DNA of 64,000 bases from Bacillota bacterium (GTDB lineage Bacteria; Bacillota; Limnochordia; Darwinibacteriales; DTU012): NCBI GenBank assembly GCA_012840925.1, contig DUVS01000015.1, forward strand, positions 119,142-183,141, read 5' to 3'. A program made the translations under genes and the position numbers. Positions 2,403 to 54,148 of this stretch are shown here, piece after piece (position 1 is the first letter of the stretch; every line of letters begins with the position of its first letter). The notes under the pieces are model-generated. The model saw nothing but the letters and a program-made list of their open reading frames with translations. It searched no databases and had not been told where the DNA came from.

Positions 2403-2843
2403 GTGCTTGATGGTGAAGTGGGCATAAATTCCAGTGCTGGGAACAACTTCATAAAGAGGTTTAGCAGGACTTATGTTGAAGAAATAGAATATCTAAAGCG
2501 AAGTTGTAATGAACCAGACTTTGTTACAACTGAACTAACTTATGTTAGTTATGGTTGTCCTTCACAATATTCCTGTGGCAAGACAGGAAAGGAGGTGACA
2601 GTTCCCCCAAGGCAACAGCCAGGGAATATTGGAACGGTTGCAACCAGACATTCATGTCCAGTCATTGCAGTCGACGGAGTAACGGCAGCTGACGAAGGAA
2701 TACGGACAAATGAGGAAACATGGATACTCACTTGCAGTGATTCCTTCATCGCACCAGAGGATTGTTTAAGAACACTAGATCATCCAAGATCCGTAGTCTG
2801 AACAGAAGCATGAATTAAAGAGATTAAGGGGGATCATAACCGA
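2403..2843 (+). ncRNA. long, highly structured 5' leader / candidate ncRNA upstream of the porin-like gene
   Basis: About 440 nt with no credible RBS-preceded ORF. Contains multiple inverted repeats (GTTGTAA..TTACAAC; AACTAAC..GTTAGTT; TCCTGT..ACAGGA; GAAGGAAT..ATTCCTTC) and ends in a strong RBS (TTAAGGGGGATCATAACCGAATG). The 132-aa ORF predicted here has no RBS. Confidence 0.3.
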
Positions 2844-4205
2844 ATGAAGAAATCAATGATGGTTTTAACACTAGTGCTTGTATTTGCAGTTTCCGGTTCA
2901 GTTTTCGCAGCCGGAATCAAGTTTGACGGTTCTTTGAAATCAAATCTCGAGTGGTACAGAGATTTGGAAGGTGAAATTGAGACCCGGCCGTCTTCCGAAC
3001 TGAGTTTGAACTTTGGTTTGGATACAGCCAGTGAAAAGACTAGAGCTGTTGTGGAATTTGGCATTGGCCATAAAAACAGCCAAGGCCTGGATCTGGAATT
3101 GGATGCCAGCAACTTGGTCTTGAAGAAAGCTTATATTGAAACTGATGGCTCTTTCTGGCACGGCGGACCTGAAGCAACAACCCGCTTCGGCAGTCTCGAC
3201 ATTGATTACGGCCCATTCAGCGTAGTCAAGGACCAATATGGTATCAGTGTCAGTGACATGAATATTGGGCCGGTTGCAGTCAAGGGATTCTACGGTATCC
3301 CGAGCCAAGAGCAAAAATCAATTCAAGGCTTGAGAGCCGACATGCTCATGGATAATATCGCTGCCGGTGCAGCTGTAGTCCATGACTGGGATGCATTGCA
3401 CGTAGCAGTTGACGGTGCTATTCGTCCGATGCAGGATCTGATTCTCGGTGCATCAGTTGCTACTCAGTTCGACATGAGACAAGAAGCTGAAGGTGAAGAA
3501 GGCGAAGAAGGCGAAGCAGAAGAGAACGCACTAAGACACATGTTAGCAGTTGGAGCTCAATATCAGGTAATGGATAACTTGAGTGTCCGCGGCGGATACA
3601 AAGCCATTTCTGAAGACTGGCAGCCAGAGTACTTGGCAGACAAAGCCAAGAAAGCTGCTGACGATCGCGGCCAAAACTGGATCCACGAGAGCGAACGCAG
3701 AAACAGTGGTTTCTATGCTGGTATCTCCACCAACCAGTCTGGTATCCAACTAGCAGCTGACTACGATCAAATCTTTGACGAGGCAATTTTGACTGCTGCA
3801 ACCGATGTGGAAGGATACAATGTTAACGTTGAAACAGTACTGGCAGTTGGCGCTGAAGAAGGTATCAAAACTGAAAGCACAACTCTGGGAGTCGAAAAAG
3901 CATTTGCAGTAATGAACGGCTTGGATATCACAGCTAAATACAACGGCAAGTGGACACCAGCAACCGGATTGGTTCACACTGTTGGTGCCAATACCAAGTT
4001 GGGCTTAATCCCTGCAGTTGATGGTCTTGAGCTGAATAGTGAAGTAACAGTCTCCGATCTTGAAACTATTGGCTATCAAGTAGGAGCTAGCTTCGACGCA
4101 CCAAACGGTATTGGCCTGAGCATCAAGCACGTTGGCGGTAAATTCGCTGATGAATCAGTCAAAACTGGTACTACTGCCAAAGCAGGTATCGCAGTTAAAT
4201 TCTAG
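2844..4205 (+). CDS. secreted beta-barrel, porin-like outer-membrane-type protein (hypothetical)
   Basis: Signal peptide MKKSMMVLTLVLVFAVSGSVFA|AG. Alternating hydrophobic/polar beta-strand pattern with a C-terminal ...GIAVKF (terminal Phe typical of OMP beta-barrels). Internal acidic low-complexity EAEGEEGEEGEAEE. Strong RBS GGGGGAT. Confidence 0.5.
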   Translation: MKKSMMVLTLVLVFAVSGSVFAAGIKFDGSLKSNLEWYRDLEGEIETRPSSELSLNFGLDTASEKTRAVVEFGIGHKNSQGLDLELDASNLVLKKAYIETDGSFWHGGPEATTRFGSLDIDYGPFSVVKDQYGISVSDMNIGPVAVKGFYGIPSQEQKSIQGLRADMLMDNIAAGAAVVHDWDALHVAVDGAIRPMQDLILGASVATQFDMRQEAEGEEGEEGEAEENALRHMLAVGAQYQVMDNLSVRGGYKAISEDWQPEYLADKAKKAADDRGQNWIHESERRNSGFYAGISTNQSGIQLAADYDQIFDEAILTAATDVEGYNVNVETVLAVGAEEGIKTESTTLGVEKAFAVMNGLDITAKYNGKWTPATGLVHTVGANTKLGLIPAVDGLELNSEVTVSDLETIGYQVGASFDAPNGIGLSIKHVGGKFADESVKTGTTAKAGIAVKF

Positions 4206-6807: not shown

Positions 6808-7077
6808 TTGGCTCAAAATAGGCGAATAGTGGTCTCTGTGCCCAACAAGCTGTTGAAGGAAGTGGATCAGGTCGTGCAGGAAGGAAACGGCAACCGGAGC
6901 CAGTTTATCCGGGAAGCGGTTCAGATGTATATCCTGCACCGGAAACGAGCCTCTTTGCGGGAACAACTGAAAAGTGGATATCAAACCATGGCAGCCATTA
7001 ACATGCTCTTAGCTGAAGAAGGAACCGATGAGCAATTGCTTGACCAGTATGAAAGACAGTTAGCGGAGGCGGAATAA
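6808..7077 (+). CDS. mazE: RHH/CopG-type antitoxin (MazE / EndoAI-like)
   Basis: TTG start 7 nt after [35 protein letters not shown] is a ribbon-helix-helix fold motif. Gene lies immediately upstream of, and is coupled to, the MazF-like toxin. Confidence 0.75.
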
Positions 7078-7078
7078 T

Positions 7079-7435
7079 GTGCAGCAAACGATAAGGCGTG
7101 GGGATATCTTCTATGCCAACCTCAATCCGGTTATTGGGTCGGAACAGGGTGGCGTACGGCCTGTCTTGATTCTACAGAACAATATTGGCAACAAGTACAG
7201 CCCAACCACGATTATTGCAGCGATAACGTCAAAAATCAAAAAGGCCAAGCTGCCGACTCATGTAGAATTATCAGCTGCTGAGTTTAACCTCGACAAAGAC
7301 TCGGTTATTCTGCTGGAGCAGCTGCGAACTATTGACAAAAGGCGTTTGAAGGAGAAGATCGCCCATTTGGATGAAGAGATTATGAGCGAAATCGATCGGG
7401 CCATCATGATCAGTCTGGGCTTGGTCGATCTGTAA
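7079..7435 (+). CDS. mazF: MazF/PemK-family endoribonuclease toxin (NdoA/EndoA-like)
   Basis: [74 protein letters not shown] is near-collinear with Bacillus EndoA/NdoA. GTG start lies 1 nt after the antitoxin stop, with RBS GGAGGCGG. Confidence 0.9.
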
Positions 7436-7437
7436 AG

Positions 7438-7470
7438 CACTCACTTTTGCTGAGTGTTTTTCTTTTTTGG
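7438..7470 (+). terminator. terminator after the TA operon
   Basis: GCACTCA-cttttgc-TGAGTGT stem followed by TTTTCTTTTTT. Confidence 0.65.
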
Positions 7471-7481
7471 GAGGTGCAGCC

Positions 7482-8192
7482 GTGAATTCGTTAATTGGTA
7501 TTATCTGCAGTCATCAATGGGAAGACCCGCAGCGGTTTTATGTCAACAGCGCTTATGTCCATGCTGTTGCCGCTGCTGGGGGCACTCCAGTTCTCATTCC
7601 TCATCAGGAGGAATCGCAGTTGGAGAATATCCTGGAACAGATCTCCGGATTGTTGGTTCCGGGAGGCGTTGATCTTGATCCGATATATTTTGATCAAGAA
7701 TTGCACCCAAAAAGTGGTATAATTGATCCTTGGCGGGATCAATCGGATCTGGTTCTGATCCGGGGTGCCCTTGCCCGCAGCATTCCGATCCTGGCAATCT
7801 GTCGCGGCTGCCAGGTGTTGAATGTGGCTTGCGGCGGCAGTTTGATCCAGGATATTGAGAGTCAGATCCGGCAGCCGATCAAACACCGGCAGGAGGCGCC
7901 CAGGTGGTATCCTACACATGAAATTGCAATCGCTGCCGATAGTCTTTTGGCCAGGATTTATGGAGCTGCCACGATCAGGGTTAACTCGTTCCATCATCAA
8001 GCTCTGGATCAGATTGCTCCCGGCTTTCGGGTTACCGCTAGGACCAGTGACGGTGTGGTGGAGGCCATTGAGAGTATCGACAACCGATTTGTCTTAGGGG
8101 TACAGTGGCACCCTGAGCTAATGGCTGGCCATGATCCCGGTGTGAGCAAGTTGTTTGCTCATTTTGTAGCAGCTGCTAAAAACGGACGCTGA
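7482..8192 (+). CDS. class I glutamine amidotransferase / peptidase C26 (gamma-glutamyl-GABA hydrolase family)
   Basis: ILAICRGCQVLNVACGG (catalytic Cys) and VQWHPE (His-Glu) motifs. GTG start 6 nt after GGGAGGTG. Confidence 0.8.
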   Translation: MNSLIGIICSHQWEDPQRFYVNSAYVHAVAAAGGTPVLIPHQEESQLENILEQISGLLVPGGVDLDPIYFDQELHPKSGIIDPWRDQSDLVLIRGALARSIPILAICRGCQVLNVACGGSLIQDIESQIRQPIKHRQEAPRWYPTHEIAIAADSLLARIYGAATIRVNSFHHQALDQIAPGFRVTARTSDGVVEAIESIDNRFVLGVQWHPELMAGHDPGVSKLFAHFVAAAKNGR

Positions 8193-8223: not shown

Positions 8224-9246
8224 ATGGCAAGTATTGTAGCAAGAGTATATCGAAACCAGATGGTGGAAAGTGTTCATTATGGTGATTGGGTGATCGTCAA
8301 TCAAGAAGGGAAGATCATTGCCAGCCAAGGTGATCCGGGCCTGAAAACTTTTTTCCGTTCCGCTGCCAAACCTATCCAGGCTTTGCCTGTAGTAGAGCAG
8401 GGAGCGGCAGACCATTTTGGTTTCAACGACGAGGAACTGGCGGTTATGTGCGCATCCCATAACGGAGAACCGGAGCATTTGGCAGCGGTTAGTTCAATCC
8501 TGGCCAAAATCGGGCTCGATCAAACAGCCCTTCAGTGTGGAGTTCATCCGCCAAGGCATCCGGGGCAGCTGCATCTGTTAATCCGTACTGGCGCAGAACC
8601 GAGCGAGCTTCATAATAACTGTTCTGGCAAGCATGCCGGGATGTTGGCCTTATGCGTATATCATGGTTGGGACCTTGACGGATACACAGCCCCGGGTCAT
8701 CCGCTGCAGCAAATGGTTTTGTCATACATTAGTGAGTTTTGTGATGCTGCAGAGGATACAATAAATCTGGGAATTGATGGCTGTGGTGTCCCGGTATTTG
8801 GTTTATCCATAACTCAAATGGCTTTGGGATGGGCCCGCCTGGCTGATCCCAGCCGGTTTTCGCCGCAGCGCGTCAAGGCTGTGGAGCGGATCAGGAAAGC
8901 CATGGGCAGCCACCCCCATCTGGTGGCCGGGTCGAACCGGTTATGTACTGACTTATTGAAGGCCTTTCGCAGCCATGGTTTGGTGGCCAAATCAGGAGCT
9001 GAGGCGGTGTACTGTATCGCGATGCCCGACCGGGGCTGGGGGTTGGCCTTGAAGATCGCCGATGGCAGCAGCCGGCCGGTGGCTCCAGTCGTACTTGCCA
9101 TTTTAAACCAACTAGGCTATAGTGGTGACAGAAATATCTTGGATCAGTATCAGCCATCAGTGATCCGCAACCACCATCAACAGCCTGTCGGTGAGATTGT
9201 GCCTGATTTGTCTGAAGCTAAATTTGAAAGGGTAGTTAACCAGTGA
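8224..9246 (+). CDS. asparaginase II family protein (PF06089-like)
   Basis: 340 aa. FRSAAKPIQALP...MCASHNGE...NNCSGKHAGML...GIDGCGVPVF motifs characteristic of the Rhizobium-type L-asparaginase II family. Confidence 0.75.
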   Translation: MASIVARVYRNQMVESVHYGDWVIVNQEGKIIASQGDPGLKTFFRSAAKPIQALPVVEQGAADHFGFNDEELAVMCASHNGEPEHLAAVSSILAKIGLDQTALQCGVHPPRHPGQLHLLIRTGAEPSELHNNCSGKHAGMLALCVYHGWDLDGYTAPGHPLQQMVLSYISEFCDAAEDTINLGIDGCGVPVFGLSITQMALGWARLADPSRFSPQRVKAVERIRKAMGSHPHLVAGSNRLCTDLLKAFRSHGLVAKSGAEAVYCIAMPDRGWGLALKIADGSSRPVAPVVLAILNQLGYSGDRNILDQYQPSVIRNHHQQPVGEIVPDLSEAKFERVVNQ

Positions 9247-14152: not shown

Positions 14153-14236
14153 ATTATGGAGCCATTTAAAGGAAATCATCTTTAAGCAGCGAACTATAGT
14201 TAGTTATAAAAAGAAATGGAAATGGAGTGCTCGTGG

Positions 14237-14791
14237 ATGGAGAAGGATTCGATTCAGGCGGTTTTATTGACAGAATCACAGATTGCCGAACGGGTAGAGC
14301 AGCTGGGTAAACAGATCTCCCAAGACTATCAAGGCAATGATCTGGTCCTGGTAGGCATCTTAAAGGGAGCAATCTGCTTCTTCTCTGATTTGATCCGGCA
14401 GGTAGAGATCCCGGTCAATATTGATTTCATGGCTGTATCCAGTTATGGTAGCGCATCGCAGACATCCGGTGTAGTAAAGATCCTGAAAGATCTGGACATG
14501 CCCATCGAAGGACGCCACGTGCTGATCGTAGAAGATATTGTGGACACCGGGCTAACCTTGAATTACTTGAAAACTAATCTGCTGTCCCGGAATCCCGCCA
14601 GTCTCAAGGTGGTTGCGCTGCTGGACAAGCCGGATCGCAGACAGATCGATATCCAAGCAGATTATCTAGGCTTTTCGATTCCGGATCATTTCGTGGTAGG
14701 ATACGGTATTGACTATGCTGAGCAGTACCGGTCCCTGCCTTATGTGGCAATTTTAGACCCGGCAGCGTATCAAAGCCAGGCCAAGGAGTGA
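14237..14791 (+). CDS. hpt: hypoxanthine phosphoribosyltransferase
   Basis: VLVGILKGAICFFSDLIRQV...PRPP-binding VLIVEDIVDTGLTL...LLDKPDRR. ATG at 14237 is preferred by homology; in-frame ATGs at 14216 and 14222 are alternatives. Confidence 0.9.
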   Translation: MEKDSIQAVLLTESQIAERVEQLGKQISQDYQGNDLVLVGILKGAICFFSDLIRQVEIPVNIDFMAVSSYGSASQTSGVVKILKDLDMPIEGRHVLIVEDIVDTGLTLNYLKTNLLSRNPASLKVVALLDKPDRRQIDIQADYLGFSIPDHFVVGYGIDYAEQYRSLPYVAILDPAAYQSQAKE

Positions 14792-14797
14792 ATTAGC

Positions 14798-16060
14798 TTG
14801 ATGGAGACCGTTGTAATCATTGATCTCGGATCATATGCCAGCCAAGAGATAGCAAGATTGGTGCGATCCTGCCGTGTCTACAGCGAGATCGTCCCGGGAA
14901 GTGCTTCTGCTGCAGAAATCAAAAAGAAAAACCCAATTGGGATCATCGTTGTCAACCCAGCTCCTGTCGAGGATCTGCAGGCACTGCATTTGGATGCGGA
15001 AATCTTGGATCTCGGGTTTCCCATCCATATTCAATTCGCACAAAAACTCGACACCGAGAAAGCTCTGCAAGAAATTCAGGGCTTTCTGACGGAAAGGTGC
15101 CGCGCCAGCCAAGACTGGACCATGGAGCAGTTTGTAGATAACATGATCACAGCGATTCGCAGGCAGGTGGGGGATAAGAAACTTGTCTGCGGATTAAGCG
15201 GCGGAGTCGATTCTTCTGTGGCTGCTGTATTGGTGCATAAGGCTGTGGGTGATCAGCTGACCTGCATATTCGTCGATCATGGCTTTATGCGCAAGAATGA
15301 GGCTGAGGAAGTGGTCAAGACCTTCAGTGAGTTTGAATTGAACTTGATTGCCGTTGATGCCAGAGACAGATTTATGAGCAAAGTGGCGGGAGTCACTGAT
15401 CCTGAACAGAAGCGGAAGTTGATCGGCACTGAGTTTATTCGAGTCTTTGAAGAAGAAGCATGTAAACTTGGCGCCGTGGATTTTCTGGTGCAGGGAACTG
15501 TGTATCCAGATGTGATCGAAAGCGGGCTGGGGCAGCATGCGGTGATTAAGTCCCATCATAATGTCGGCGGCCTGCCGGAGAATCTCCAATTTGAGCTGGT
15601 TGAACCTTTGCGGCAGCTGTTCAAGGACGAGGTGAGGCAGGTTGCCCAGATTTTGGGCCTGCCTGACACGATTGTTCAGCGGCATCCGTTTCCGGGGCCA
15701 GGGTTGGCTATCCGGATCATCGGCGAGATCACAGCAGCAAAGTTGGAGATCCTGCGGGAAGCCGATGCCATCTTTATTGAAGAGTTGCGAAAATCGGGCT
15801 GGTACAACAAGGTATGGCAGGCTTTTGCCGTACTGACCGATATCAGAACTGTCGGAGTGAGCAACAGTGACCGTACTTATGATTACGCAGTCGCCTTGAG
15901 GGCAGTCCACAGCACAGACGGGATGACTGCCCGGTGGATTCAGTTTCCCTATGATCTGCTGGAACAAGTCAGCAGCAGGATTCTCTCGGAAGTTGAGGGA
16001 ATCAACCGGGTAGTCTATGATATCAGTGCCAAACCTCCGGCAACTATCGAATGGGAATAG
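14798..16060 (+). CDS. guaA: GMP synthase-like protein: intact ATP-pyrophosphatase and dimerisation domains with a truncated, catalytically dead glutamine amidotransferase remnant
   Basis: C-terminal 300 aa are collinear with GuaA (SGGVDSSV P-loop, [10 protein letters not shown], ending KPPATIEWE). N-terminal about 95 aa align with the start of a class I GATase ([27 protein letters not shown]). The GxCxG nucleophile region is absent and the H-P-E triad position reads AQK. Confidence 0.8.
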
Positions 16061-16070
16061 GTGAGTGGGC

Positions 16071-17276
16071 ATGAACTTGCGGACACCACGGGGTGTTAAA
16101 GATTTTCTACCGCCTGAAGCTGAATGGAAACTGGAGTTGGAACGGAAAATCCGTAGTGTGTTTCACAGTTGGGGATATCAGGAAGTGATTTCCCCTACTT
16201 TTGAATTCAACGGCCTTTTTACCCAGGATAGCGGCGAAGAGCGCCAAACATACCGCTTTTTTGATCAGAATGGGGATCTGCTGATTTTGCGCCCGGATTT
16301 AACCACCCCGATTGCCCGGATCGTGGCTACCAGGCTCAAAGATGAAGTGAAGCCGCTTCGGCTCTCCTACATAGCCAATGTTTTTCGCTATGATGAGGTC
16401 CAGGTTGGGTTTCAGCGGGAATTTTACCAGGCAGGCGTTGAGCTTTTGGGCAGTAGTTCAGCGGCAGCGGATGCTGAAGCTGCTGCTTTAGCTGTAACCA
16501 TCTTCAATGATGTTGGGGTGGGAGGTTTTAAGCTGGACCTTGGCCACACCGGTTACATTCAAGGAATTCTAGCCGAATGCCAGTCCCCAAATACCAGACA
16601 GAAAATTTGGCAGCTGCTGTTGAAAAAGGATCTTGTGGGCCTTAGGAATCTGGTGATAACCAGTGATCTGCCTGATTCAATTAAAGGCCTGCTGTTGAAG
16701 CTGCCGCATTTCCGGGGCCGGGAAAATCTGCTGGAGCAGGCTTATGCCAGCGCACCCAATCAGCTTGCCCGGGAGGCTGTTGCTAATCTCAGGCAGATAT
16801 ACCAATTTCTCAACGCTTATGGCCTCGGCCCACAGATTGAGATAGACTTGAGCATTGTCAAATCATTGGGATACTACACCGGGATGGTCCTGGAGGGGTA
16901 TGTGCCGCAGGTAGGCTTTACTCTCTGCAGCGGCGGCCGTTATGATCAGCTGGGTCAGCGTTTTGACAGCCATCTGCCGGCTGTTGGTTTTGCTCTTGGG
17001 TTGGAACGGCTGATGCTGGTCCTGGAACTGCAGGGATTGCGGCCAGAAGCGGAGCCTAATGGCGTTTTTGTACTGCCTCATTCCTGGCCGCACGCTCTGG
17101 ATTACGCCGCCCGTAAGCGGGAAGAGGGAATCAGGGTTGAAGTGGACACGGAAGGGCGGACAGAAGCTGAGGCAGTCTCCTATGCCCGGCTGCGCAGATT
17201 TTCCCGAGTGGTGGCTGTGGATGCGGCAGCAGCCAGGCATGTGCCCCTTGCGGAGAAGGAGGATCAATCATGCTGA
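16071..17276 (+). CDS. hisZ: ATP phosphoribosyltransferase regulatory subunit HisZ (HisRS paralog)
   Basis: HisRS class II-like motifs (RGVKDFLP, FRYDE..Q.GRQREFYQAGVE, LCSGGRYD). Lies immediately upstream of a short-form hisG. ATG at 16071 is 7 nt after AGGTGAG. Confidence 0.85.
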   Translation: MNLRTPRGVKDFLPPEAEWKLELERKIRSVFHSWGYQEVISPTFEFNGLFTQDSGEERQTYRFFDQNGDLLILRPDLTTPIARIVATRLKDEVKPLRLSYIANVFRYDEVQVGFQREFYQAGVELLGSSSAAADAEAAALAVTIFNDVGVGGFKLDLGHTGYIQGILAECQSPNTRQKIWQLLLKKDLVGLRNLVITSDLPDSIKGLLLKLPHFRGRENLLEQAYASAPNQLAREAVANLRQIYQFLNAYGLGPQIEIDLSIVKSLGYYTGMVLEGYVPQVGFTLCSGGRYDQLGQRFDSHLPAVGFALGLERLMLVLELQGLRPEAEPNGVFVLPHSWPHALDYAARKREEGIRVEVDTEGRTEAEAVSYARLRRFSRVVAVDAAAARHVPLAEKEDQSC

Positions 17277-17899
17277 GAATCGCCGTTGCCAAGGGAAGGC
17301 TATTGGATTCATTTTTTGAGCTGCTTGGCAAAGCAGGCTATGATTGTGATAGTGCAGCCCAGGCATCCCGCAAGTTGGTTATTGATGTCGAAGCAGCAGA
17401 TCTGCGTTTTATCCTGGCCAAGCCGGCGGATGTTCCCACTTACGTCGAGTACGGGGCTGCCGATCTGGGAGTTGTAGGCAAGGACATTCTTGTTGAAAGT
17501 GACAAGCACGTGGCCGAACTGCTCGATTTGAAATATGGCTTGTGCCGGCTGGTGGTGGCTGTAACAAAAGATTCAGGGATCACCAAAGTGCAGGAATTGG
17601 ACTTTAACAGCCGGGTCACCAGCAAGTATCCCCGCATTGCCGAAGAGTTTTTCAACAGTCTCGGGATTCAGGTGGAGATCATAGCGCTTAACGGTTCGAT
17701 CGAATTGGGCCCAATGGTGGGTTTGAGCGAGGCCATTGTGGATATTACCGAGACAGGACGCACTTTAGCTGAGAACGGGCTGGTGGTCATCGAAACGATC
17801 ATGGAAAGTACAGCGCGGCTGGTGGCAAATCGAATCAGCCTCAAGACGCAGCGGGAAGCTATTGCCGCACTGGCCGGTGCACTGGAAGGAGTAGTATGA
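17270..17899 (+). CDS. hisG: ATP phosphoribosyltransferase, short form HisG
   Basis: MLRIAVAKGRL...; 209 aa. The short form requires HisZ. Confidence 0.9.
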   Translation: MLRIAVAKGRLLDSFFELLGKAGYDCDSAAQASRKLVIDVEAADLRFILAKPADVPTYVEYGAADLGVVGKDILVESDKHVAELLDLKYGLCRLVVAVTKDSGITKVQELDFNSRVTSKYPRIAEEFFNSLGIQVEIIALNGSIELGPMVGLSEAIVDITETGRTLAENGLVVIETIMESTARLVANRISLKTQREAIAALAGALEGVV

Positions 17900-19266
17900 T
17901 GCGGATTGTCAATGTCAAGGATTACAAATCCCTCGAGGAAGTCAGGAAATTGGTGACCAGGCCGCATTTGGATCAAGTTGAGGTCAGTGAAGCTGCAATG
18001 GAGCGGACCAAACAAATCTTTGGCAGGCCTTTGTCCCCGCAGGAGGCAGTGGCAAAAATCCTGGCTGATATCGAACAGGAAGGCGATCAAGCCCTTTTGC
18101 GCTATATCGCCACGATTGACGGGCAAGAATTGGATGCCGATGGGCTGTTTGTCAGCACTGCTGAATTTGCACAGGCTGAGACCCTGGTAAGCCCAGAGTT
18201 CAAAACCGCATTAGCCGCAGCCATTGACAATGTGCACCGCTATCATCAGAAGCAGGTGGAGCAGAGCTGGTTTGCCCCGGAGTCTGATGGCATCATTCTT
18301 GGCCAGAAGATCACTCCGTTGGAGCGGGTGGGCATTTACGTACCCGGTGGCAATGCGCCTTTGATTTCCACAGTTGTGATGAGTGCCATTCCAGCCCAGG
18401 TAGCGGGAGTAGAGGAGATCATTATGGCCACCCCCCTGAGGGACGGTGTTGTGGATCCCCACCTTCTGGTTGCGGCCAAGCACTGTGGGGTCAGGGCGGT
18501 GCTGAAAGCCGGAGGGGCTCAAGCAATTGCTGCCCTGTCCTATGGGACCGAAACTGTACCTCGTGTCGATAAAGTCGTGGGGCCGGGAAATTTATATGTC
18601 AGCCTGGCCAAGAAGATGGTTTACGGGCGGGTGGGCATTGAAGCGATTGCCGGGCCCAGCGAGATTTTGATTATTGCCGATGATTCGGCTTCCCCTGATT
18701 ATGTGGCAGCCGATTTACTGTCCCAGGCGGAGCACGACTGGGAAGCTTCGGCTGCTTTGATCACACCTAGTTACCAATTGGCACAGCAGGTGGAACTGGA
18801 ATTGACCAGGCAGCTGCAAGACTTGAGTACAGCCGGCATCGCTGCGACAGCCCTTGAGCGCTGGGGGCTGATTGTAATCACAAAGGATATGGATCAGGCT
18901 GTGGAGCTTGCCAATATCTTTGCCCCGGAGCATTTGGAACTGCTTGTGGAAGCTCCCTGGGATTATCTCGGGAAAATCAAGCATGCGGGAGCGATCTTCC
19001 TGGGCAAGTATGCCACCGAACCGATAGGGGATTATATCGCCGGACCGAACCATATCCTGCCTACCAACGGGACGGCCCGGTTCTCGTCGCCCCTGACAAC
19101 CCATGACTTTGTCAAAAGGTCGAGCGTGATCTACTATACCGAAACCGGATTGGAAAAATATGGCAAGCTGGCAGTTGAGATTGCCAACCGGGAAGGTTTG
19201 GCAGCCCATGCCAGGGCAATTCAGATCCGGCTTGAGGATCTTCAAGAAGGTGAGCAGAATGGATAA
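17896..19266 (+). CDS. hisD: histidinol dehydrogenase
   Basis: ATGA overlap with the hisG stop (coupled) and RBS AAGGAG. Motifs GPGNLYV, SQAEHD, GDYIAGPNHILPT. Confidence 0.9.
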   Translation: MMRIVNVKDYKSLEEVRKLVTRPHLDQVEVSEAAMERTKQIFGRPLSPQEAVAKILADIEQEGDQALLRYIATIDGQELDADGLFVSTAEFAQAETLVSPEFKTALAAAIDNVHRYHQKQVEQSWFAPESDGIILGQKITPLERVGIYVPGGNAPLISTVVMSAIPAQVAGVEEIIMATPLRDGVVDPHLLVAAKHCGVRAVLKAGGAQAIAALSYGTETVPRVDKVVGPGNLYVSLAKKMVYGRVGIEAIAGPSEILIIADDSASPDYVAADLLSQAEHDWEASAALITPSYQLAQQVELELTRQLQDLSTAGIAATALERWGLIVITKDMDQAVELANIFAPEHLELLVEAPWDYLGKIKHAGAIFLGKYATEPIGDYIAGPNHILPTNGTARFSSPLTTHDFVKRSSVIYYTETGLEKYGKLAVEIANREGLAAHARAIQIRLEDLQEGEQNG

Positions 19267-19858
19267 AAACGTACGCAGTGCTGATGTTTCCCGCGCCACG
19301 AGTGAGACCGAAATCAAGATCAGCCTGGTTCTGGATGGCTCAGGGAAGGCAGCAGTATCCACCGGCATTGGCTTTCTGGACCATATGTTGACTGCTTTTG
19401 CCCGGCACGGAGGGTTTGATTTGACCCTCAACTGCCGCGGTGACCTGGAAGTGGACGGGCATCATACGGTTGAGGACATCGGGATCTGCCTTGGCCAAGC
19501 CCTGCGACAGTGCATTGGGGACGGAACCGGCATCGGCCGCTACGGCAACGCATTTATTCCCATGGATGAAGCTTTGGTCCAGGTTGTTGTCGACCTGTGC
19601 GGCCGTAGTTTTGTCACCCATAACCTCAAGTTTCCCCAAGAGCGGGTGGGAGATTTGGACAGCTGTTTGATCGTGGAATTTTTACGGGCTTTCGCTGTCA
19701 ATGCCGGGATTACGGTACATGTCAGGCAGCTGGCGGGGTTCAACACTCACCATCTGATTGAAGCTCTTTTTAAAGCATTGGCCTATGCTCTGAACCAGGC
19801 TGTCAAGGTGGTTGATCAGGAGAGAGTGTTATCCACGAAAGGGAAGTTGGACTTGTAG
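19259..19858 (+). CDS. hisB: imidazoleglycerol-phosphate dehydratase
   Basis: RSADVSRATSETEIKISL...DGHHTVEDIGI...H..EA.FKA motifs. ATG at 19259 follows AAGGTGAG; 8-nt overlap with hisD. Confidence 0.9.
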   Translation: MDKNVRSADVSRATSETEIKISLVLDGSGKAAVSTGIGFLDHMLTAFARHGGFDLTLNCRGDLEVDGHHTVEDIGICLGQALRQCIGDGTGIGRYGNAFIPMDEALVQVVVDLCGRSFVTHNLKFPQERVGDLDSCLIVEFLRAFAVNAGITVHVRQLAGFNTHHLIEALFKALAYALNQAVKVVDQERVLSTKGKLDL

Positions 19859-19872
19859 GAGCGAAATAAGCG

Positions 19873-20595
19873 ATGTTGATTATACCGGCAATTGATTTGA
19901 TTGATGGAAAGTGTGTCCGCCTTCAGCAGGGGGATTATCGAAAAAAGACTGTTTACAGTGCAGATCCGGTCCAGGTGGCCAAGGGTTTTGCCAAGGCCGG
20001 GGCGGAACTGCTCCATATTGTTGACCTTGATGGTGCCCGGTTGGGCAGCCCCCAGAATCTGGACGTGATCAAAGAGATTGTCCAAGCAGTCCCCATAGCC
20101 ATTGAATTCGGAGGTGGCTTGAGGGATTTGGCTGCTGTGGAGGCAGCTTTTGCTGCTGGAGTGACCAGGGTAGTGCTGGGTACGGCAGTGCTGGCCGAAC
20201 CGGATTGGTTTTTGGAGGCTATCGCCAGGTATGGTGACCGGGTTGTTGTGGGAATTGACGCCCGGGAAGGCAGGGTTGCCGTTGCCGGTTGGCAGGAAAC
20301 CACGAATGTTATGGCCCTGGATCTGGTCTTGCGGATGAAAGAGCTCGGCATCAAGGAGATTATCTATACCGATATTGCCAGAGACGGGATGCTTAAAGGG
20401 CCAAATTTGGAGGCTCTGAAACAGCTTGGCCAGGCCCAGGCCAAAATTGTGGCCTCTGGCGGGACCGCTTCCCTGGCTGATATCGAGAATTTACGTCAGT
20501 TGAGCCCATATGGAGTCTATGCCGTGATTATCGGTAAGGCGCTTTATACAAACCAGATTGATCTGGCTGAAGCAATCAGACTCGCCCGATCTTAG
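19873..20595 (+). CDS. hisA: ProFAR isomerase HisA
   Basis: MLIIPAIDLIDGKCVRLQQGDY is the HisA N-terminus, not the HisF-type RIIPCLDV. Confidence 0.9.
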   Translation: MLIIPAIDLIDGKCVRLQQGDYRKKTVYSADPVQVAKGFAKAGAELLHIVDLDGARLGSPQNLDVIKEIVQAVPIAIEFGGGLRDLAAVEAAFAAGVTRVVLGTAVLAEPDWFLEAIARYGDRVVVGIDAREGRVAVAGWQETTNVMALDLVLRMKELGIKEIIYTDIARDGMLKGPNLEALKQLGQAQAKIVASGGTASLADIENLRQLSPYGVYAVIIGKALYTNQIDLAEAIRLARS

Positions 20596-20610
20596 CGCGG
20601 AGTGGTGGAG

Positions 20611-21273
20611 ATGGATCTTAAACTGAAATTTGATGAACAGGGGCTGATTCCGGCGATCATCAAGAGCCGGGACGGTGAGGTTTTGATGCTGGCTTATATG
20701 AACCGTGAGGCCCTGGAACGGACTTTGGCTACAGGCTATACCTGGTTTTACAGCCGCAGCCGGCAAAAGCTGTGGCAAAAAGGGGAAAGTTCAGGGCATC
20801 GGCAGCGGGTAATCGAGATAGCTGCTGATTGTGATTGTGACACCCTGCTAATAACCGTGGATCAGATCGGCCCCGGTGCCTGCCACGAAGGGTATAAGTC
20901 CTGCTTTCATTATCCAATCAAGCTGGCTGCCGAAGGGGGAACGCTTGAATCCGGTGAGCCCCAACCCACTTTTGATCCGGACGCAGTTTATAACTCCCAG
21001 ATTTTGTATCAGCTATATCAATTGATCTGTGAGCGGAGGCAGCATCCGAAGGAAGGTTCATATACCAACTATTTGTTTGAGCAGGGTATTGACAAGATCT
21101 TGAAAAAAGTGGGCGAAGAAACAGCTGAAGTGATCATTGCAGCCAAAAACACAGAACCGGATCAGTTGATCTACGAGGCCAGTGATTTACTGTACCATCT
21201 ATTGGTTTTACTAGTAGAAAAAGATATTACCCTCGCCCAGGTCTGGCAGGAACTGGCATCCCGCAGGAGATAG
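20611..21273 (+). CDS. hisI: bifunctional phosphoribosyl-AMP cyclohydrolase / phosphoribosyl-ATP pyrophosphatase HisIE
   Basis: HisI Zn-site [26 protein letters not shown], followed by the HisE helical domain LYQLYQLI..R...P..SYT..L. ATG at 20611 after GCGGAGTGG. Confidence 0.85.
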
Positions 21274-33880: not shown

Positions 33881-34192
33881 ACTTTAAACATATTCAAAGG
33901 TATTCCGAGAAAAGCAATGACCGGGAGGAGTAGCTGAGTACCGCCTTGCAGAGAGGGAAACAACAGGTGCAAGTTTCCCAGGTATGGGCTGGCGAAGGTC
34001 GCCCGGGAGCTGTTGGGATGAAACGGGAGATGTTTCCATGAGTAGTTCCAGCCGTCTGGCGCGTTAAGCCAACTGAGGGCTCAACAGCATGCTGAGTTCT
34101 GGTTTTGTTTATGCTGTATGAGAACAAAGGTGGTACCGCGGAAGTCTTTTCGTCCTTTAGATGAAAAGACTTTATTTTTTTGGAGGAGTGAA
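33881..34192 (+). promoter_or_regulatory. T-box riboswitch leader (Val-specific) with intrinsic terminator
   Basis: Conserved T-box sequence AAAGGTGGTACCGCGG (34124-34142). It is immediately followed by terminator AGTCTTTTC...GAAAAGACT plus TTTATTTTTTT (34143-34181). GGTC (GUC Val codon) is a candidate specifier within GAAGGTCGCC. Located upstream of valS. Confidence 0.7.
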
Positions 34193-34197
34193 GAAAG

Positions 34198-36849
34198 ATG
34201 CAGCAGACAAAGACTCTTGCTAAAATTTACGATCCCAAACAAGTAGAAGACAAATGGTATCAATACTGGGAGGAAAACGGCTATTTCCATGCGGAGGTAG
34301 ATCCTGACAGGGAACCCTTCTGCATTGTGATTCCACCGCCGAATGTTACCGGGCAGCTGCACATGGGGCATGCCCTGGATGAAACCTATCAAGATATTTT
34401 GATCCGCTGGAAACGGATGCAGGGATACAATGCTGTCTGGATTCCAGGGACGGATCATGCCGGTATTGCCACTCAGGCCCGGGTAGAAGAGCATCTCCGC
34501 AAGACCGAAGGGCTGACCCGGCATGATTTGGGGCGGGAAGCATTTTTGGAACGAGTTTGGCAGTGGAAAGAAGAATATGGTGATCTGATCATCAAGCAGC
34601 TAAAGAAGCTGGGTTCATCCTGTGATTGGGACCGTGAACGGTTCACCATGGATGAGGGATGTTCACGGGCGGTTCGAGAGGTGTTTGTCCGTCTCTACGA
34701 AAAGGGCCTGATCTATCAGGGGAATTACAGTGTCAACTGGTGCCCCCACTGCAGCACAACGCTATCAGATATTGAAGTTGATCATGAAGAAGTGGACGGC
34801 AGGCTCTATTACATCAACTATCCTTTTGCTGACGGCAGCGGCCACATTCAAATCGCCACCACCAGGCCGGAAACATTGCTTGGTGATACTGCGATTGCTG
34901 TCAATCCTGAGGATCCCAGATATCAACATTTGATTGGTAAGAAAGTAATCGTACCGCTGGTCGATCGAGCGGTGCCCGTCATAGCCGATGATTATGTTGA
35001 TCCCAGCTTTGGCACAGGGATGGTGAAAATAACTCCGGCTCATGACCCTAACGACTTTGAAATAGGGTTGCGCCACAATCTGGAGCAGGTAGTGGTTATC
35101 GGTTTGGACGCCCATATGACCAAGGAGGCAGGAAAATACAGCGGGCTGGAGCGTTATGCCTGCCGCAAATTAGTGATCCAGGATTTGGAGAAGCTGGGCC
35201 TGTTGGCCAAAGTTGAAGAACATGTCCACGCAGTGGGCGAATGCTACCGGTGCGGGACTGTGATCGAACCGTTAGTTTCGAAGCAGTGGTTTGTGAAGAT
35301 GAAGCCCCTGGCTGAACCGGCCATTGCAGCGGTCAAGGAGGGAAGGATTAAATTTGTTCCCGAGCGGTTCAGTAAAAACTACCTGAACTGGATGGAGAAC
35401 ATCAGAGATTGGTGTATCTCCAGGCAGTTGTGGTGGGGCCACCGGATTCCAGTCTGGTATTGCCAGAACTGCGGTGAAGCCTTCGCTGCTCTTGAAGATC
35501 CGGTGGAATGCCGCAAATGCGGTTCCAACAAGATCGAACAGGATCCGGATGTTCTAGATACGTGGTTTTCGTCAGCTTTATGGCCATTTTCCACACTCGG
35601 ATGGCCGGAGCAAACCCCCGAATTGGAGCATTTTTACCCGACTAGTGTATTAGTGACTGGATTCGACATCATCCCCTTCTGGGTGGCCCGGATGATCTTC
35701 ATGGGTTTGGAATTCATGGGGGAAAGGCCCTTTGACGATGTGTTGATCCACGGTCTGGTCCGGGATGAACTGGGCCGCAAGATGAGCAAATCCTTGGGTA
35801 ATGGCGTGGATCCCCTCGAGGTGATTGAAGAGTACGGGGCAGATGCCTTAAGGTTCAATCTGGTGATCGGTGTGGCCCCGGGCAATGACTTGCGCTTCAT
35901 CCCCGAGAAAGTTGAGGCCTACCGCAATTTTGCCAATAAAATCTGGAATGCAGCCCGGTTTACCTTGATGAACCTGACGGACTTCGATGCTGGACAAGGC
36001 ATGCCCGATCAGGATCTGTCTGTTGCCGACCGCTGGATCTTAAGCCGCTACCAGCATGCTGTCAGCGAAGTGACACGCCATCTGGAGCGTTACGACATCG
36101 GTGAAGGAGCCCGGGTGCTCTATGATTTCATCTGGAGTGAATTATGCGATTGGTATATTGAGCTGGTAAAACCAAGATTGTACGGCAAGCATGGTGAAAA
36201 AGCCCGCTATGCTTCCCAATTCACCTTGTGGTATGTCTTTAGAAACACGATGCAGTTACTGCATCCATATATGCCCTTTATCACCGAGGAAATCTGGCAG
36301 CAGCTGCCTTTAGCTGGCGAGACCATAATGCTTGCTCCATGGCCTGTTGAGAAAGAGCTGAAAGATGAAGCAGCCGAAACAGAAATGGAGCTTTTGATGG
36401 CTGTGATCACTACCATCCGGACTATTCGCAGCGAGAAGCAGGTGCCTCCCGGCAGGAAGATCACCGCTATCCTCCAGGCTGATGCAGAACTGGGGGCTAT
36501 TCTGGAGGCAAATGTCCACTATTTGGAGACGTTGGCTGGATTGGCTTCAGCCACCATTGAAGCTCCTGGCGACAAAGTAGAGCGGAGTATTGCTGCCGTA
36601 ACCAATGGTGTAGAGATTTATCTGCCTTTGGCCGATCTGGTGGACTTGGAAGCTGAGGCCAAAAGAATTACCAATGAACTGGCCAGAGCAAAACAAGAAC
36701 TGGAACGAGTGCAAGCTAAGCTTGCCAATCCAGGCTTTGTCTCTAAGGCGCCTGAGGCGGTGGTGGCAAAAGAGCGGGAAAAACAGGAGCTTTTGACAGA
36801 TACCGTTGCCAAACTGACTGCTTTGTATCAGGAGATTGTTCGTGAATAA
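34198..36849 (+). CDS. valS: valyl-tRNA synthetase
   Basis: HMGHAL (HIGH-type) motif, KMSKS, C-terminal coiled-coil; 883 aa. Confidence 0.95.
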
Positions 36850-54045: not shown

Positions 54046-54148
54046 TATTGAAGCGGGTTTGGATGTGTTGTGAAACCGCATGGTACAGGCTTTTTAAAAC
54101 ACAGCATGTGTGCCTGGGACCAGCGAGTCTGAGCAAGGAGGTGGAGTA

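Follow-up and report, generated by a model that had tools for sequence, protein, structure and literature searches.

The 64,000-nt window analysed here (positions 119,142 to 183,141 of contig DUVS01000015.1, assembly GCA_012840925.1, a Bacillota bacterium) carries a homologue of the guanosine monophosphate (GMP) synthase gene guaA between hpt and a histidine biosynthesis operon. The gene, here designated guaA*, encodes a GMP synthase (GMPS) whose glutamine amidotransferase (GATase) domain is reduced to a stub. The reading frame 14798..16060 on the plus strand is open throughout and yields 420 amino acids when counted from a TTG codon. The ATG at 14801 is the likelier start, because it gives the 419-residue product present in the databases as P0001 (100% identical) and agrees with the "MET..." starts of the orthologues. 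In the following, P-numbers denote homologous proteins and L-numbers the loci of relatives, L039s being the short copy at locus L039.

Profile searches and an inventory of Cys and His residues bear out a preliminary description of the sequence, in which an internally deleted GATase domain without its catalytic triad had been proposed. The Pfam model PF00117 matched residues 6-53 only (profile positions 1-50 of 190; 16.5 bits, cut-off 22.8), and the model guaA_Nterm (TIGR00888) aligned residues 5-76 with its positions 1-73 of 188 at 39 bits (cut-off 172). With the full-length model PRK00074 the match picks up again at profile position 172, positions 74-171 being absent. About eight residues thus stand in for some 98 profile positions, among them those of the G-x-C-x-G nucleophile elbow and of the H-P-E motif. 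Cys24, His63, His76 and Cys100 are the only Cys and His residues among the first 105, and no G-x-C-x-G, H-x-E or substitute Cys/His motif was found in this part. About 95-105 amino acids of the GATase domain remain, without the Cys-His-Glu triad. The junction (residues 77-84) is unconserved even among the closest orthologues, which read ALSASKK, TLTESRK and TFTETEK at the position of QFAQK, and an L-INS-i alignment places an eleven-residue stretch of guaA* against the segment AAxADRxRRLY, upstream of QFHPE. The interpretation of QFAQK as a mutated QFHPE motif was rejected on these two grounds, and the likeness is probably due to chance; the accompanying statement that the His and Glu are lost holds under either alignment.

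The synthetase part is complete. It had been described as collinear with GMP synthase across the ATP-pyrophosphatase and dimerisation region, with SGGVDSS and KPPATIEWE in place, and this was confirmed by the model guaA_Cterm (TIGR00884; residues 111-420, 499 bits, cut-off 339), by GMP_synt_C (PF00958; residues 328-419, 145 bits) and by conservation among 83 homologues, in which both motifs are invariant. The NAD_synthase/PP-loop model (PF02540) matched residues 116-191. Motifs of the lid loop (IKSHHN, expected IK(T/S)HHN) and of the helices α11 (DVIES, expected DxxES) and α12 (KDEVR, expected KD(D/E)V(K/R)) are all present and invariant, as are R403, K411 and E417 in the C-terminal sub-domain. 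The sequence of guaA* keeps every motif shown by mutagenesis to be necessary for the formation of adenyl-xanthosine monophosphate (adenyl-XMP) and for XMP binding, namely the P-loop, DxxES, IKSHHN, KDEVR, Arg358, K411 and E417 (motif definitions and roles: PMC10526850). Solved chains of bacterial GMPS matched at E values of 1e-127 to 1e-129 and archaeal ATP-pyrophosphatase (ATPPase) subunits at 1e-104 to 1e-107. The whole protein passes the NCBIfam model NF000848 for glutamine-hydrolyzing GMP synthase (590 bits, cut-off 400), and P0001 already carries this name in one source. The name overstates the capability that can be read from the sequence. Coordinates of guaA*, its parts and its neighbours are compiled in Table 1.

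Table 1. Features of guaA* and associated genes in the window
Feature	Coordinates	Strand	Remarks
guaA* coding sequence	14801..16060	+	419 amino acids + stop; alternative TTG start at 14798 gives 420
Retained N-terminal half of class-I GATase fold, residues 1-76	14801..15028	+	strands β1-β4 and helix α1
Helix α1, residues 14-23	within 14801..15028	+	part of the GATase stub
Junction HIQFAQKL, residues 77-84	15029..15052	+	replaces ~98 GATase profile positions (Cys elbow, Gln pocket, His-Glu)
Last GATase helix and linker, residues 85-105	15053..15115	+	runs into conserved DWT motif; PRK00074 resumes at residue 85
ATPPase catalytic core, residues 106-326	15116..15778	+	Pfam, NCBIfam, motif conservation
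P-loop SGGVDSS	15197-15217	+	invariant among 83 homologues
Lid loop	15545-15577	+	in ATPPase core; invariant motif residues
α11 DVIES and α12 KDEVR	within 15116..15778	+	all motif residues invariant
C-terminal XMP-binding/dimerisation sub-domain	15779..16057	+	PF00958, 145 bits; ends KPPATIEWE
XMP-phosphate loop VGVSNSDRT, residues 351-359	15851..15877	+	corresponds to M. jannaschii Gly243-Glu250 (mapping checked); M-G-D reads S-N-S
hpt (hypoxanthine phosphoribosyltransferase)	14216..14791	+	TIGR01203, 229 bits; stop 6-9 nt 5' of guaA* start
hisZ-hisG-hisD-hisB-hisA-hisIE	16065..21273	+	begins 4 nt past guaA* stop
Peptidase_C26/PuuD-type stand-alone class-I GATase	7467..8192	+	Cys-His-Glu triad intact

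Synteny assigns guaA* to a block, also present in related MAGs, that comprises genes for a helix-turn-helix protein, PemK, a C26-type GATase (and asparaginase II), followed by tsaE, tsaB, rimI, tsaD, groES, groEL, hpt, guaA and hisZ onward. Within this block the slot tsaD-groESL-hpt-guaA-hisZG is occupied by different forms of guaA: an intact gene with GICYG and QFHPE (P0010/L093, P0012/L092, L018), a full-length dead gene with a Cys-to-Gly exchange, reading GIGSG and WFDPD (P0005/L091), and the deleted gene (window, L001, L002). Since one slot holds intact, dead full-length and deleted forms among relatives, guaA* is the positional orthologue of the canonical guaA, apparently decayed in place. 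Mean identities of the synthetase part to distant GuaA proteins were 64.2% for the window, 64.6% for intact relatives and 55.2% for L039s; the window synthetase is not accelerated in comparison to intact relatives, whereas the tandem paralogue is. The latter is found in a Clostridiales metagenome-assembled genome (MAG), in which an intact guaA (1041-2561) is followed 40 bp on by a faster-evolving short form of 435 amino acids (2601-3896); in contrast to guaA*, this copy is a genuine paralogue in tandem. The shared slot and the unaccelerated synthetase speak against the initial designation of guaA* as a paralogue. Its proposed link to purine salvage, based on the position behind hpt, was likewise abandoned: the adjacency of hpt and guaA is common to many loci with intact guaA and is ancestral, and therefore carries no special salvage signal. 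The 64-kb window contains no second guaA, and among about 18 related loci with their 10-kb flanks L039 alone has one; the contig scan of relatives used exact peptide words (at least 80 loci), and a single hit per assembly is uninformative with respect to a second guaA.

The relatives form a graded series, with protein lengths from 501 down to 403 amino acids and an N-terminal part that shortens from 186 (dead, undeleted) to 88 amino acids. This gradation suggests that inactivation came first and erosion later. Many homologues have a Gly at the position of the nucleophile (GIGSG, GIGFG, GIGHG, GIGYG), and we consider that Gly may be the best-tolerated residue in the strained nucleophile elbow. 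The Cys-to-Gly exchange (GIGxG) recurs in L022, P0005, P0014, P0029, L003, L004, P0008 and P0009. In L022 it is the only change; this protein is 90% identical to the intact L019 in the synthetase part and represents a clearly independent case. L007 and L010 are 78-79% identical to the intact L021 and L023 is 76% identical to the intact L060, while all four proteins share only 61-66% identity with the window (synthetase part in each case). Inactivation or erosion arose independently in Bacillota, in about six or more lineages with intact nearest relatives, a count drawn mainly from the identities to the nearest intact and nearest dead forms, the neighbour-joining tree being too rough for an exact number. 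At L007, L010 and L023 the contig ends 4-900 bp downstream of the short guaA, and the upstream neighbours differ (sufCD, ileS). Neither a shared partner gene nor a GATase gene was found near the short forms of other lineages, whose neighbours are sufCD and ileS.

Substitution rates were estimated from pairs of species with dead forms; synonymous divergence was saturated throughout and the ratios are thus approximate. Nonsynonymous divergence (dN) was 0.11-0.24 for residues 1-52 and 0.09-0.14 for the synthetase part, and reached about 0.3-0.75 for residues 53-104. The segment 85-105 was relaxed, with 0.27-0.67 in the closest pairs. Residues 1-52, which include α1, and the synthetase are under purifying selection. 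A comparison of 107 intact with 67 dead sequences showed which positions of the stub are kept: D8, G10, Q15, A18, R19, R22, V26, Y27 and E29 are still conserved in dead forms, D8, R22 and E29 at 100%. Released in dead forms are Q12, Y13, G52, P53 and S55 of the glutamine site and oxyanion hole as well as R20 and E23 of the α1 cross-talk motif. A second region of release lies in the synthetase. The M. jannaschii loop Gly243-Glu250 (G-V-x-G-D-x-R) is described as invariant in all GMPS; the phosphate of XMP in the adjacent subunit is bound by the Arg of this loop (PMC10526850). The window reads G-V-S-N-S-D-R and keeps only the first Gly and the Arg (Arg358), the latter being invariant in dead forms too. 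The loop Gly has a frequency of 0.99 in intact and 0.09 in dead sequences, the Asp of 0.98 and 0.09, respectively. Most dead lineages lost G-D independently of one another, namely the window clade and L003, the groups of L008 and P0015, L007, L023, L039s, L029/L040, P0052 and P0007. M-G-E is found in L022, whose inactivation is recent, and the loop Gly is kept in L004, P0018, L010, P0071 and P0009. In our reading, G-D probably serves only the coupling to the glutaminase and was relaxed for this reason.

Structure prediction with AlphaFold2 yielded four strands with flanking helices for the stub, at predicted local distance difference test values of 81-96 (81-95 for residues 1-76) with or without intact sequences in the alignment, and a helix at residues 85-99. 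In a Foldseek search the whole model reached a template modelling (TM) score of 0.89 to two-domain GMPS versus 0.65 to ATPPase-only subunits, which therefore places the stub where the GATase normally sits. The fold predicted for the first 52 residues lies at the canonical place of the GATase. The GATase helix α1, with the motif (K/R)(K/R)xRE, packs on the synthetase helices α11 (DxxES) and α12 (KD(D/E)V(K/R)), both of which carry catalytic residues (PMC10526850); the window counterparts are ARLVRS, DVIES and KDEVR. Because α1 contacts these carriers of catalytic residues, the stub probably acts as a structural buttress of the synthetase.

Among known systems, the bacterial two-domain GuaA (EC 6.3.5.2; E. 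coli 1GPM, A. baumannii 7SBC) resembles guaA* in the collinear ATPPase core and dimerisation sub-domain. Across the whole structural alignment, Foldseek gave about 38-41% identity, with TM scores of 0.85-0.89. P-loop, lid loop, the α11 and α12 motifs and the C-terminal loop are shared, and guaA* occupies the same genomic slot as the intact guaA of its relatives. In contrast to the bacterial enzyme, guaA* lacks about 90-98 GATase residues, the Cys-His-Glu triad and the oxyanion G-G-P; RRVRE of α1 reads RLVRS and the G-D of the XMP loop is lost. The protein would be unable to hydrolyse glutamine. An analogous case of function is the NAD+ synthetase NadE, an amidoligase of the same N-type ATP-pyrophosphatase superfamily that occurs with and without a glutaminase module and whose short form uses free ammonia. 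NadE differs in its substrate, in its nitrilase-like glutaminase and in the lack of a degenerate stub in the short forms, and the analogy is functional only. The archaeal GuaAb subunits (P. horikoshii PH1347, 2DPL/3A4I; M. jannaschii, 6JP9) are 50-53% identical to guaA* over about 310 residues, and like the activity proposed for guaA*, theirs does not depend on a covalently attached glutaminase, NH4+ being usable in vitro (PMC10526850). They differ from guaA* in having no GATase remnant (about 305-310 amino acids), a dedicated GuaAa partner and a preserved loop Gly243-Glu250, whereas guaA* has a fused GATase-derived stub of 105 amino acids and no partner was found in the window or in the flanks of its relatives. 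The laboratory counterparts of the guaA* state are the mutant PfGMPS_C89A and the isolated PfATPPase; with the nucleophile lost, glutamine-dependent activity is abolished and the formation of GMP from NH4Cl persists (PMC4673825). PfGMPS_C89A retains the full glutamine pocket and is inhibited by glutamine, whereas the natural dead forms eroded the pocket and kept α1.

Taken together, guaA* is probably the ordinary guaA of this organism, which by decay at its original site became a GMP synthetase dependent on ammonia, a reading to which we assign a probability of about 0.65. Given the intact synthetase and the behaviour of published Cys mutants and isolated ATPPase modules, we infer an activity of EC 6.3.4.1, the formation of GMP from XMP, ATP and NH3. 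The intact ATPPase and dimerisation module would bind ATP-Mg and XMP and form adenyl-XMP, which would be aminated by free cytoplasmic NH3 and not by NH3 channelled from glutamine. Free ammonia and a glutaminase acting in trans, the two nitrogen sources named in the preliminary description, are still the two that come into question. The ATPPase module is known to work without the GATase and to accept external ammonia (PMC10526850). PfGMPS_C89A has lost the glutamine-dependent activity and kept the NH4Cl-dependent one, with a Michaelis constant (Km) of 8 mM versus 19 mM (PMC4673825). Binding of glutamine inhibits this mutant, which would favour shedding of the glutamine pocket after loss of the Cys; the turnover number of the isolated PfATPPase is 5.9-fold lower, a reason to keep the stub (PMC4673825). 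The history of the gene may have begun with inactivation of the glutaminase, by a Cys-to-Gly exchange as in the relatives, tolerated where ammonia was plentiful. The residual glutamine pocket, by then a liability or neutral, would have eroded with deletion of the glutamine-binding half, and the β1-α1-β2-α2-β3(-β4) stub together with the last helix would have been kept in support of the synthetase.

Where ammonia is abundant, for example in anaerobic digesters, the glutamine route would no longer be needed. Homologue names put the window clade in what sources call Limnochordia, although Bacillota or "uncultured Clostridia" also occur as labels, and the names of several MAGs with the closest homologues are those of what we take to be anaerobic-digester MAGs. 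The lineage DTU010/DTU012 ("Ca. Darwinibacteriales") is abundant in thermophilic high-ammonia biogas reactors (PMC11932165, PMC12663870) with 3.6-4.4 g/L total ammonia-N (PMC11932165). This corresponds to about 260-310 mM (calculated), a range that the Km values reported for NH4+ do not exceed. The paper on the Darwinibacteriales does not mention guaA. In the searchable literature no natural ammonia-dependent or GATase-less bacterial GMPS was found; the reports retrieved were confined to isolated domains and to Cys mutants made in the laboratory.

Several alternative explanations were weighed. That guaA* is a pseudogene in decay, or an artefact of assembly or of a frameshift, is effectively refuted. 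Gene losses from the adjacent his operon in related lineages and the several amino-acid auxotrophies reported for members of the order (PMC12663870) would be in line with decay, but the 1260-nt gene is nucleotide-identical on contigs of at least six independent assemblies (JGI, Logan and ENA) with flanks 99.93-99.97% identical to the window. The index of the collection lists the same 419-residue protein, P0001, in 37 blocks, 23 contigs carrying it were read, and P0002-P0004, L001 and L002 (71-75% identity) share its architecture at 420-421 amino acids. A corrected assembly might have restored the missing segment; all six independent contigs carry the identical deleted gene. These contigs, the strong purifying selection on the synthetase part and residues 1-52, the open frame and the same architecture in dozens of species and the confident structure prediction sustain the earlier view of an uninterrupted, maintained gene rather than a frameshift. 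It is also conceivable, if unlikely, that guaA* is a redundant or neofunctionalised copy and that an intact guaA resides elsewhere, guaA* serving for instance as an ATP-saving GMPS at high ammonia or as a heterodimer partner. The pair at L039, the lost G-D of the XMP loop and the scope of the guaA search would accommodate such a copy. It is at odds with the ancestral guaA slot occupied by the window gene, with a synthetase conserved as in intact relatives and not as in L039s, and with the single guaA at the loci searched other than L039.

A glutaminase supplied in trans appears improbable to us. A separate class-I GATase, either the C26-type protein encoded at 7467-8192 or a GuaAa-like subunit, would dock on the synthetase and deliver NH3 as in the two-subunit GMPS of archaea, which shows that a split enzyme is workable (PMC10526850). 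The C26-type GATase, with its triad intact, recurs within the shared syntenic block at a distance of 6-7 kb upstream of guaA, both in the window and in L001-L003, L005, L006 and L089-L091, and in L092, where guaA is intact, only a fragment of 49 amino acids (2233-2379) is left of it; this is a single case, the one intact-guaA locus covering that position. This protein is the only conceivable trans glutaminase in the window and a candidate only. It scores 38.9 with the model for GMP synthase subunit A (NF001975), far below the cut-off of 198, and resembles PuuD-type hydrolases (134.9, cut-off 266). Its gene lies apart from guaA*, and in other lineages no GATase is encoded near the short forms; a cognate GuaAa subunit was found neither in the window nor in the flanks of related loci. 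Moreover, the stub keeps α1 and is predicted to cover the canonical docking surface of the GATase, so a partner would have to bind elsewhere, and the GATase cross-talk residues (R20 and E23 of α1, G-D of the loop) are relaxed and not conserved. Some points also weigh against guaA* as an ammonia-dependent synthetase decayed from the ordinary guaA. The activity ascribed to this protein is a predicted one, and the reported Km values for NH4+ are high (8-174 mM). Loss of a G-D pair described as invariant could mean altered handling of the substrate XMP and not mere uncoupling. The tandem pair at L039 demonstrates that short forms can coexist with a normal enzyme, and the search for an intact guaA or a glutaminase subunit covered the window and the 10-kb flanks of relatives. 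Since GMPS structures were part of the training set of AlphaFold, the modelled position of the stub does not count as independent evidence. The habitat of the window organism and its taxonomy are derived from homologue names.

The short intergenic spacing, the sole basis for this assignment, suggests that hpt, guaA* and hisZGDB-A-IE probably form a single transcription unit. Scans for promoters and terminators around guaA* gave nothing beyond the expectation from shuffled sequences, and an Rfam scan detected no riboswitch close to the gene. The his operon of the window lacks both hisH and hisF. In relatives, L018 has a full hisZGDB-H-A-F-IE operon, L003, L016 and L025 lack only hisH, and L089 and L090 retain hisIE only; L093 has an intact guaA and an operon reduced as in the window, without hisH and hisF. 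A co-variation of hisH loss with dead guaA, as part of a genome-wide shift away from glutaminases, was suggested by L003, L016 and L025 (guaA dead, hisH absent) and L018 (guaA intact, hisH present) but rejected in view of L093, L089 and L090. Since L093 combines an intact guaA with a reduced operon, the loss of his genes is not strictly tied to the state of guaA. The pattern looks like stepwise decay or relocation of the operon, and the reduction fits the histidine auxotrophy reported for "Ca. Darwinibacteriaceae". Upstream of guaA*, an asparaginase-II gene (8224-9246) and the C26-type GATase gene, both coding for ammonia-releasing enzymes, lie in conserved synteny. A pair of a ribbon-helix-helix antitoxin and a PemK-type toxin (6808-7435) directly precedes the C26 gene and has the same position in L081 and L089-L092. 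Elsewhere in the window, a T-box leader (33908-34160; 112.7 bits) precedes valS (34198-36849), and a ribosomal L21 leader (54064-54140), barely at threshold with 36.6 bits, lies upstream of rplU.

A wider proposal is put forward tentatively. The convergently relaxed residues, R20/E23 of α1, G-D of the XMP loop and I249, might mark the network that couples XMP binding to activation of the glutaminase and transfer of ammonia. Loss of the GuaA glutaminase could be a repeated and possibly adaptive event in Bacillota, maybe linked to ammonia-rich habitats. GMP synthetases that depend obligately on ammonia and carry a pseudo-GATase stub as a structural element would then form a class found in nature. 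Reviews on GMPS name the fully liganded state and the ammonia tunnel as open questions (PMC10526850), and the relaxed residues, if so interpreted, would be a natural-knockout guide to the still unvisualised path of ammonia. The graded series from intact forms over the Cys-to-Gly exchange to eroded forms is a ready-made natural deletion set for enzymology. It indicates which portion of the GATase is still needed by the synthetase, α1 and the first three strands, and which residues of the synthetase matter only for coupling to glutamine.

For the organisms concerned, metabolic reconstructions that follow the NCBIfam name may assign an unsupported requirement for glutamine to abundant uncultured digester bacteria (GTDB Limnochordia, order DTU010). 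Use of NH3 by guaA* would, by our own reasoning, save the ATP otherwise spent in making glutamine, and purine synthesis could be tied to the high ammonia that shapes the communities of biogas reactors. For the enzyme family, guaA* would then be a clear case of a pseudo-domain kept for structure after its catalytic death.

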